Source: a virus. Taken from it: DNA of 64,000 nucleotides. The DNA lies in the IMG/VR virus record IMGVR_UViG_3300042868_004707, positions 51,250 through 115,249 of that record, one strand, 5' to 3'. The notes beneath the pieces are model-generated. The model made no database searches, had not been told where the DNA came from, and was given only the letters and a program-made list of their open reading frames with translations. A program made the position numbers and the translations under genes. Shown here in pieces: positions 39,215 through 40,370 of the stretch. Numbering within the stretch: position 1 is the stretch's first letter; each line of letters starts with the position of its first letter.

Positions 39215-39616
39215 AACGAGTACTTCACAACCTACTGTAAAAATAATGGGGCTAACAGGTTTTGACAGGTTACCAGTAATTAATACAATCAGCCAGAGAG
39301 ATAACTGTAAACTAAGATGAATATAATTAAATGGCAAAAACACAAACAGTGTAGTATCTCAAGGAGACAACGCACAAATCGTAGCTAACATGACTGTAGT
39401 ACATAACATCTTAAATGGTGGTATTAAAGTTAAATCAAATGACATTATTGAATTTGAATTAGCAGCCTAAATTAAAGATTTCTCTGTTAGATTAAACAGA
39501 GTGGTGGTTTCTCGATTGTTTATCAGTCGATCCTAGTTGTATGATACTCCAACTTTAAAACCGTATCAAAAAAGCTGTATAAATTGTATTTTTGAAAATA
39601 ATTTTGGACGAGGGTT

Positions 39617-40319
39617 TGGAAATTGGACCCATTACATAGGAATATGTAATTAAAAATTGCTTGAATTGCTGGAACGCTAAGTTACACCTGCGAGGGTAAT
39701 ATGCCAATCAGCAGCCAAGCTCACTGGAAGAAGTGAGAAGGTTCAGAGACTAGGGACACTACGGTGAGCCCACAGTAAGCAACATCTAGAACAGATGATG
39801 ATATAGTCCGATCCCTACAGAAATGTAGGAAGAAAGAATAGTCTCTCGTAGGCTAACTTTCTTGTAACTTGTTTGTCTGTGTATTTACCATTACGAATGG
39901 TAACTGCATCATGGTATTTTAAGACTGTATTTATACGATGTAACTTTTTAGGATGATGAGAATCCAGAAGTCTACAAAGTTTCAAACATTCTTGATTACT
40001 ATTACAAGATAAAGAATAACCAATATTATGGTTTTTTTTTCTAGAAGGTTTTTTTGACATATAAGTTTTAATACTATGTTCATCTAACAAATATTTTTGA
40101 ATCTCTTCAAGAATTGTTATATAACAGTTAGTAAAATCTATTTTGATGCATTTATAAGTATCATTTTTAGAACTTTTACTCATAGTAATTGAACCATCAG
40201 CATCAAAAAAGCCTGAAATGTATTGTAGTGTCATAGTGATTATGTTTTAGATATGGTGTAAATCTACAACATGTCCTAGACATATGCAAGTAAAGTGACA
40301 ACAAGTTATTAACAAAATG
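39617..40319 (+). mobile_element. Group I intron in the tmRNA T-loop
   Basis: P1 GGGTT/GACCC with U.G at the splice site; AATTGCTGGAA, AATCAGCAG, GTTCAGAGACTA and GATATAGTCC core elements; terminal G at 40319. Confidence 0.88.
39815..40234 (-). CDS. Single-motif LAGLIDADG homing endonuclease, antisense within the tmRNA intron
   Basis: YISGFFDADGSI; 139 aa. Confidence 0.88.
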   Translation of the reverse strand: MTLQYISGFFDADGSITMSKSSKNDTYKCIKIDFTNCYITILEEIQKYLLDEHSIKTYMSKKPSRKKNHNIGYSLSCNSNQECLKLCRLLDSHHPKKLHRINTVLKYHDAVTIRNGKYTDKQVTRKLAYERLFFLPTFL

Positions 40320-40370
40320 CAACTCCCTCTAGCTCCACTAGTCTCGCATTGTAAGACTATTTACCATTTT

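Follow-up and report, generated by a model that had tools for sequence, protein, structure and literature searches.

Does a phage tmRNA (ssrA) gene that is split in its T-loop by a group I intron still give rise to a functional tmRNA, and is such an intron mobile? The question was raised by a 64,000-nt stretch of viral DNA (hereafter the window), which spans bases 51250-115249 of a 115,249-bp IMG/VR virus record. We consider it highly probable that the locus carries a mobile ssrA group I intron in a tailed phage, probably of Bacteroidota, and that this intron is spliced for function and spread by an endonuclease encoded antisense to it.

The phage genome and its probable host

The virus record had direct terminal repeats, and its genome was estimated to be complete. 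Proteins encoded in the window included a major head protein, a portal, a large terminase, a DNA polymerase and rIIA/rIIB-like proteins, by which the virus was recognized as a tailed phage. Among isolated phages, only distant relatives of the terminase were found, the best match being a Leptolyngbya phage (40%), followed by Cellulophaga phage phi4:1 (31%) and then by Flavobacterium and crAss-like phages. The host is probably a member of the Bacteroidota, as suggested by related tmRNAs in phages of Cellulophaga and Flavobacterium, related introns in Bacteroidota genomes and promoter-like motifs. The tmRNA intron was the sole group I intron found in the phage genome.

Directly upstream of the RNA gene cluster lie a MoxR-like AAA+ ATPase gene (bpMoxR/AAA_5) and then a 466-aa ORF (window 36156-38884, plus strand). 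A tblastn search of isolated phages with the MoxR-like ATPase gave no match, and the 466-aa ORF had no family match. Just 3' of the tmRNA region, two free-standing NUMOD4/HNH_3 endonuclease genes were found (41244-41939 and 43165-43716, plus strand), the first of which had a sub-threshold AP2-domain match (32.3 bits, with a cut-off of 33.3 bits).

A tmRNA restored by joining two exons

The features of the locus, in window coordinates, are as follows.

38909-38916, plus strand: candidate Bacteroidota-type -7 box TATATTTG of a putative promoter for the tRNA-like gene and tmRNA unit (motif scan)
39248-39616, plus strand: tmRNA exon 1, with the acceptor 5' strand, PK1, tag frame, PK2-4 region, T-stem 5' strand and T-loop UU (ARAGORN on the spliced sequence, truncated RF00023 match, 95.9% identity to the intronless allele of contig L031)
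39333-39470, plus strand: putative tag reading frame, with a 45-aa tag by family comparison and resume codon GGC at 39333
39617-40319, plus strand: group I intron of 703 nt at T-loop internucleotide position 3 (RF00028, empty site in L031, covariation)
39815-40234, minus strand: LAGLIDADG homing endonuclease gene, 139 aa, single motif (ORF, Pfam, homologues, dN/dS, fold)
40259-40266, minus strand: candidate -7 box TAGATTTA of a putative promoter, near the consensus TAnnTTTG (motif scan)
40320-40338, plus strand: tmRNA exon 2, with T-loop bases 3-7 (CAACU), T-stem 3' strand CCCUC, acceptor UAGCUCC and discriminator A; its last base (40338) is the first C of CCA
40370-40408, plus strand: intrinsic-terminator-like hairpin and T run, 32 nt past the tmRNA 3' end

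Both ARAGORN and the Rfam tmRNA model (RF00023) missed the gene in the raw, unspliced sequence, and such phage tmRNAs will thus be under-annotated. In-silico removal of positions 39617-40319 (703 nt) gave a 388-nt tmRNA by ARAGORN, composed of 39248-39616 and 40320-40338. When the junction was shifted by up to 4 nt on each side, 39616|40320 was the sole one of 81 combinations to give a tmRNA call; the other 80 gave none. Exon 1 alone was searched against RF00023 with 3'-truncated matches allowed, and it aligned over positions 1-353, ending at the T-loop UU (19.9 bits, E 2.9e-6). This score lies under the 47-bit gathering score, the 3' end being absent.

The empty site was found on a 113,985-bp contig (L031), whose uninterrupted tmRNA was 95.9% identical to the joined exons of the window. 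In the BLAST alignment, window position 39616 abuts L031 position 443 and 40320 abuts 444, so that exactly 703 nt are absent. An exact IMG/VR search with the joined 28-mer across the junction gave no match; L031 differs from it by one loop base. The L031 allele matched RF00023 over its full length with 72.2 bits, a score that belongs to this allele and not to the spliced window sequence.

Read directly from the sequence, the rebuilt T arm is GAGGG-UU|CAACU-CCCUC with a 7-nt loop. The rebuilt acceptor stem has 7 bp (GGGGCUA/UAGCUCC) and includes the alanine-type G3.U70 pair, formed by G39250 and U40334, next to the discriminator A40337. Neither the T arm nor the acceptor stem is present until the exons are joined, so that splicing is required for tmRNA function.

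The group I intron

The intron is organized as a P1-P9 core (39606-39830), the region of the antisense ORF and a structured 85-nt 3' tail that ends in the omega-G. RF00028 matched 39606-39830 on the plus strand over the full model (positions 1-253) with 95.3 bits (cut-off 50) and an E value of 2.7e-23. The -1 base U39616 pairs with G39626 in P1, and the omega-G is G40319. A possible P10 of 3 bp would pair C40320-A40322 with U39623-G39625.

An alignment of 14 related intron cores, taken from phage contigs and Bacteroidota genomes, had compensatory double changes in 32 of the 50 consensus pairs, distributed over P2, P3, P4, P5, P6, P8 and P9. Compensation extended into the flanking gene. Among the intron-bearing phage contigs, the T-stems covaried across the two exons (GAGGG/CCCTC, GTGGG/CCCAC, GGGAG/CTCCC), and in P1 of contig L007 the internal guide had changed from C to T opposite an exon-strand base that had changed from G to A. 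Among close relatives, the 85-nt tail that leads from the ORF to the omega-G was nearly invariant, and its predicted fold had a z-score of -3.0, with 0 of 200 shuffled sequences folding as well. The ribozyme thus has the features of a self-splicing-type group I intron, and we infer that it splices itself.

An earlier note, made from the sequence alone, had described a phage tmRNA split in its T-loop, and both the ARAGORN call on the 39616|40320 join and the exactly matching empty site in L031 confirm it. It had also stated that removal of 39617-40319 restores the T arm and a G3.U70 acceptor, and that P1, the core and the terminal G are present; the base pairs, the RF00028 match and G40319 agree with this. 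Its proposal that tmRNA activity depends on splicing gains support from the T arm and acceptor, which are present only in the joined exons. In the tmRNA-model check that it had suggested, ARAGORN accepted the joined exons themselves, and the Rfam model matched the 95.9%-identical L031 allele in their place.

A long tag reading frame

The tag frame ends with EFELAA-TAA at 39470. ARAGORN placed the tag at 39417-39470 (GGIKVKSNDIIEFELAA, followed by the stop), with GGU 39417 as the resume codon. In the Rfam alignment, the consensus resume codon falls at GGC 39333 instead. The tag frame was open back to about tmRNA position 64-81 (at most 90) in 57 of the 58 unique members of the phage tmRNA family. 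Differences in tag length within the family were in frame, and conservation was seen both at the start of the peptide, LNG(K/N)N, and in its core, ANM..V..(I/L)L. From this comparison, GGC 39333 would be the codon at which translation resumes, and the tag would have 45 aa and end in ELAA. The comparison implies tags of about 28-47 aa in the phage family (45 aa in the window), compared with the usual length of about 10. The resume codons called by ARAGORN were inconsistent across the family.

The antisense LAGLIDADG endonuclease

As the earlier note had proposed, the 139-aa LAGLIDADG gene lies on the strand opposite to the ribozyme, after the core, and ends in P9; the ORF, the Pfam matches and the coordinates all agree. 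Its stop codon and last four sense codons (39815-39829, 15 nt) lie inside the P9 hairpin (39814-39829). The protein matched LAGLIDADG_1 (PF00961, 7.5e-7) and LAGLIDADG_3 (PF14528, 5e-6), both above the curated cut-offs. The sole motif, ISGFFDADGS, occupies residues 6-15 and did not vary among the 15 homologues aligned. A total of 207 homologues were found in the protein collection; among the 120 matches listed, identity was 56-96% and most proteins had 134-141 aa. Pairwise dN/dS among the phage copies was 0.12-0.32 (dS 0.35-0.5), a range that points to purifying selection and thus to a maintained protein.

The AF2 model of the protein had a pLDDT of 82. The best folds found by Foldseek were I-OnuI domains, I-Vdi141I, I-CreI and I-TnaI, with E values of about 1e-5 and probability 1.00 for the latter three. 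When PDB sequences were searched with a profile of the protein, the matches were weak and confined to the motif region (E about 1e-3). A model of two copies reached an ipSAE of 0.61, compared with 0.00 for the best control, with an interface formed by residues 1-14. The model runs agreed in 100% of contacts, and the pLDDT of the partner was at least 86. Such a value was attained by 20 of 30 proteins whose solved structure is a pair and by 1 of 23 whose solved structure is a single chain. Since I-CreI-type dimers have already been solved, the pass of the dimer model may reflect likeness only. The endonuclease is predicted to form a homodimer through its motif helices.

I-CreI, I-Vdi141I and I-TnaI, which are homodimeric and encoded in rRNA group I introns, likewise have one LAGLIDADG motif and about 140-160 aa. 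The predicted alpha-beta-beta-alpha-beta-beta-alpha fold and the motif-helix dimer are shared with this type of enzyme, for which a pseudo-palindromic target is expected. However, identity to these enzymes was only 13-20%, the target of the window's enzyme would be the tmRNA T-arm instead of rDNA, and its gene is antisense to the intron. Both the activity and the T-arm target are predictions made from the protein family and the insertion site.

Transcription signals and the tRNA-like neighbor

The -7 consensus of the Bacteroidota sigma-A is TAnnTTTG. On the minus strand, the candidate box TAGATTTA is one base off this consensus and lies 32 nt upstream of the endonuclease ATG, within the 3' tail of the intron. 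It was invariant in L005-L008, while L115 had a perfect TATATTTG at -42 and L010 had TACATTTA at -27. For the idea in the earlier note that antisense transcription could modulate the tmRNA, nothing was found beyond the near-consensus box on the minus strand; an effect on splicing is at most a possibility. No terminator was found after the endonuclease ORF. A sigma-70 promoter scan returned 5 sites, compared with a mean of 7.0 in shuffled sequences, and is uninformative for a Bacteroidota host.

Upstream of the RNA genes, the Bacteroidota-type -7 motif is contained in a conserved palindromic box, TCCCTGTGATGTATATTTGCAGGGAT (38897-38922, plus strand), which recurs 5' of the tmRNA in L004, L005 and L008. 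This box is possibly a phage promoter or operator element. It is followed by a 107-nt tRNA-like gene (38974-39080, plus strand), located 168 nt upstream of the tmRNA, which scored 46 bits with the Rfam tRNA model. ARAGORN did not call this gene. At minimum energy it folds into a cloverleaf whose anticodon loop has 6 nt (CUUAAC) and whose variable region has two extra hairpins. A similar 109-nt match was found upstream of the tmRNA in L005. The intron mode of ARAGORN proposed a tRNA-Asp(AUC) with a 29-nt intron, which was unconvincing and was not adopted.

Distribution of the intron among related phages

A 23-nt motif from the PK1 region retrieved at least 118 IMG/VR contigs with tmRNAs of the same family, L031 among them. 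The position-3 intron was present in about 8 distinct contigs including the window, the others being L004, L005, L006, L007, L008, L115 and L104. All of them carried the antisense endonuclease gene save L104, which is cut off before the endonuclease region. With about 95 intronless family members and about 7 other intron-bearing contigs, the intron occurs in about 7-8% of the family. ARAGORN recognized 68 family loci as uninterrupted tmRNAs. The 39 loci that it missed were considered as possible carriers of other intron types, but nearly all had an intact T-arm and acceptor and were ordinary intronless genes.

Pairs of alleles with and without the intron were found in three tmRNA lineages: the window and L031 (95.9% identical), L007 with L071 and L134 (96.4-96.7%), and L006 and L096 (95.6%). 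Between lineages, the introns were 91.6-92.6% identical, whereas the tmRNA exons were only 72.7-89% identical. Introns that are more alike than their exons are the pattern that homing would predict. The dS of the endonuclease ORF indicates that the transfers were not very recent, and the high identity of the intron cores may reflect constraint as much as recent transfer.

Further arrangements were seen in this set. Compared with the window, L004 had an intron that was 99.7% identical and exon ends that were identical, but the tag-coding middle of exon 1 (window 39340-39465) was replaced by the version seen in L005 and many intronless alleles; the tmRNA gene is thus mosaic. A complete tmRNA with a short position-7 intron was present at L011:1683-2410. 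In L011, L073 and L112, the region after a complete tmRNA contained an endonuclease gene, a second 3' exon or both.

Relatives in phages and bacteria

Homologous tmRNAs, alike in PK1 motif, long tag frame and T-arm, were found in Cellulophaga phages Calle_1 and phi14:2 and in Flavobacterium phage FpV4. Unlike that of the window, these genes were uninterrupted (RF00023 scores of 87, 58 and 46 bits, respectively).

The earlier note had regarded tmRNA T-loop introns as rare and present in a few bacteria, a background that is outdated: a 2025 survey counts 883 unique intron-form tmRNA sequences in 21 phyla (PMC11915505). According to the same survey, these introns lie within the T-loop, with U at -1 and G at omega, and their removal restores the loop. 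The main insertion site is position 7, for which Clostridium botulinum is the founding case (cited in PMC11915505); for position 3, only the class Bacteroidia is reported, with 9 instances in Table S2. LAGLIDADG genes are given for 36 of the 883, and in the founding set of 23 they are located either after P9 (4) or within P7.1 (19). None of the catalogued tmRNA introns exceeds 700 bp. The accessible text of PMC11915505 makes no mention of a phage intron form or of the endonuclease strand, and a literature search of incomplete coverage found no paper describing an intron-form tmRNA in a phage. Going by that text, the gene form, the exact T-loop subsite and a LAGLIDADG gene after P9 were already catalogued in bacteria, whereas the phage setting and the inverted endonuclease gene are new.

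Bacterial relatives were searched with the endonuclease alignment in one genome per species. The Bacteroidia position-3 introns (Prolixibacteraceae L015 and L016, Ekhidna L017, Marinoscillum L018 and L019) interrupt the same gene at the same point, after T-loop U2. They have a homologous core (73-81% identity) and a homologous LAGLIDADG gene after P9, and their length is 639-668 nt, compared with 703 nt in the window. Their endonuclease genes lie on the sense strand and encode proteins 33-40% identical to that of the window, where the gene is inverted. They also differ in setting, being located on bacterial chromosomes in tmRNAs with the tags GENNYALAA or GESNYAMAA, whereas the window holds a divergent, phage-type tmRNA.

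Relatives were also found in two Flavobacteriaceae MAGs (L009 and L010), whose position-7 introns carry a LAGLIDADG gene that belongs to the same clade (62-64% identity), is likewise antisense and also ends in P9. The ribozyme cores of these two introns were 79-80% identical to that of the window, within a range of 73-81% across all bacterial relatives. Their insertion point differs from that of the window: it lies after U6, four bases further 3', with P1 adapted accordingly and a shorter 3' tail (55-56 nt), and the tmRNA is bacterial, with the tag GESNYALAA. In the endonuclease protein tree, antisense and sense copies were separated with moderate support (85/79). The antisense layout occurs beyond phages, and seems to mark one lineage within a single intron family found at two T-loop subsites.

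Endonuclease genes opposite to the ribozyme, and in need of their own expression signals, have also been described for nuclear rDNA group I introns of myxomycetes and fungi (PMC9548176). Those enzymes are of the His-Cys box type and are encoded in eukaryotic rDNA, with spliceosomal introns and polyadenylation, whereas the window has a LAGLIDADG gene in a phage RNA gene.

A proposed mechanism and its alternatives

We propose that the tmRNA is transcribed from a Bacteroidota-type promoter together with the upstream tRNA-like gene, and that transcription from the -7 box at 38909 would end at the hairpin and T run at 40370-40408. Excision of the 703-nt intron would join UU to CAACU and so build the stem and loop of the T arm along with an acceptor stem that accepts alanine. 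The tmRNA would be chargeable, and active in trans-translation, only once spliced. Since no smpB gene was found in the phage genome, the SmpB would have to be that of the host. The endonuclease would not be translatable from the pre-tmRNA; with its gene on the other strand, in the stretch from P9 to the 3' tail, it is probably made from its own promoter within the intron tail. In co-infecting phages, the homodimer would then cleave tmRNA alleles that lack the intron, at their nearly palindromic T-arm DNA. The T-arm site would by its nature be an inverted repeat, whose center lies 1.5 nt from the insertion site. Repair from the intron-bearing copy would spread the intron by homing.

The homing part of this scheme has to be weighed against a fixed, immobile passenger that still splices, with an ORF that is domesticated or decaying and a distribution produced by vertical descent with occasional precise loss. 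The endonuclease dS, by which the copies are not recent transfers, would fit such a passenger, as would an intron present in so few family members and the imperfect antisense promoter box. A decaying ORF is nevertheless hard to reconcile with the low dN/dS, by which the protein is maintained, and with a catalytic motif (GFFDADGS) that is invariant in all 15 aligned homologues. Moreover, near-identical alleles with and without the intron occur in three divergent lineages, and gain by homing is easier to envisage than three precise losses. We therefore regard an immobile passenger as quite unlikely.

Two other explanations were considered. If the intron had inactivated the tmRNA, the gene would be dead and dispensable to the phage, a reading that draws on the fact that splicing and tmRNA function are deduced from sequence. 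It is highly improbable in view of a complete, covariation-supported ribozyme core with P1, the U.G pair, the omega-G and P10 intact, and of exons that have stayed close to an uninterrupted allele and retain the tag frame to ELAA and the G3.U70 pair; changes in the T-stem and P1 were compensated across the intron-bearing contigs. That the antisense frame is open by chance or was produced by annotation, in an intron without an ORF, has nothing in its favor beyond the unusual orientation. The Pfam matches above curated cut-offs, the 207 homologues (56-96% identity among the matches listed), the purifying selection and the confident LAGLIDADG fold refute it and leave it next to no chance. A mobile intron in a tmRNA that functions after splicing thus remains the preferred reading.

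Implications for phages and their hosts

The ssrA T-arm of the host type is very similar to the phage site (CGAGGGTTCGATTCCCTCC in Flavobacteriaceae L010, CGAGGGTTCAACTCCCTCT in the phage). The endonuclease might also cut the host ssrA T-arm. Infection would in that case leave the host tmRNA gene broken or converted, with the phage providing a tmRNA of its own that has an unusually long tag. We consider this extension unlikely. If it were true, phages would be vehicles that seed T-loop introns into the tmRNA genes of Bacteroidota, and the antisense placement would let the timing of the endonuclease be independent of the highly transcribed tmRNA.

Intron-form tmRNA genes have so far come from bacterial genomes, and the same intron family is now found on complete phage genomes. 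The data suggest a route for intron movement among Bacteroidota and their phages. With natural alleles that carry or lack the intron in three lineages, these phages offer a simple system in which homing in an RNA gene can be tested. Both orientations of the endonuclease gene occur at the same peripheral site within one intron family, which bears on how homing endonuclease genes and ribozymes associate.
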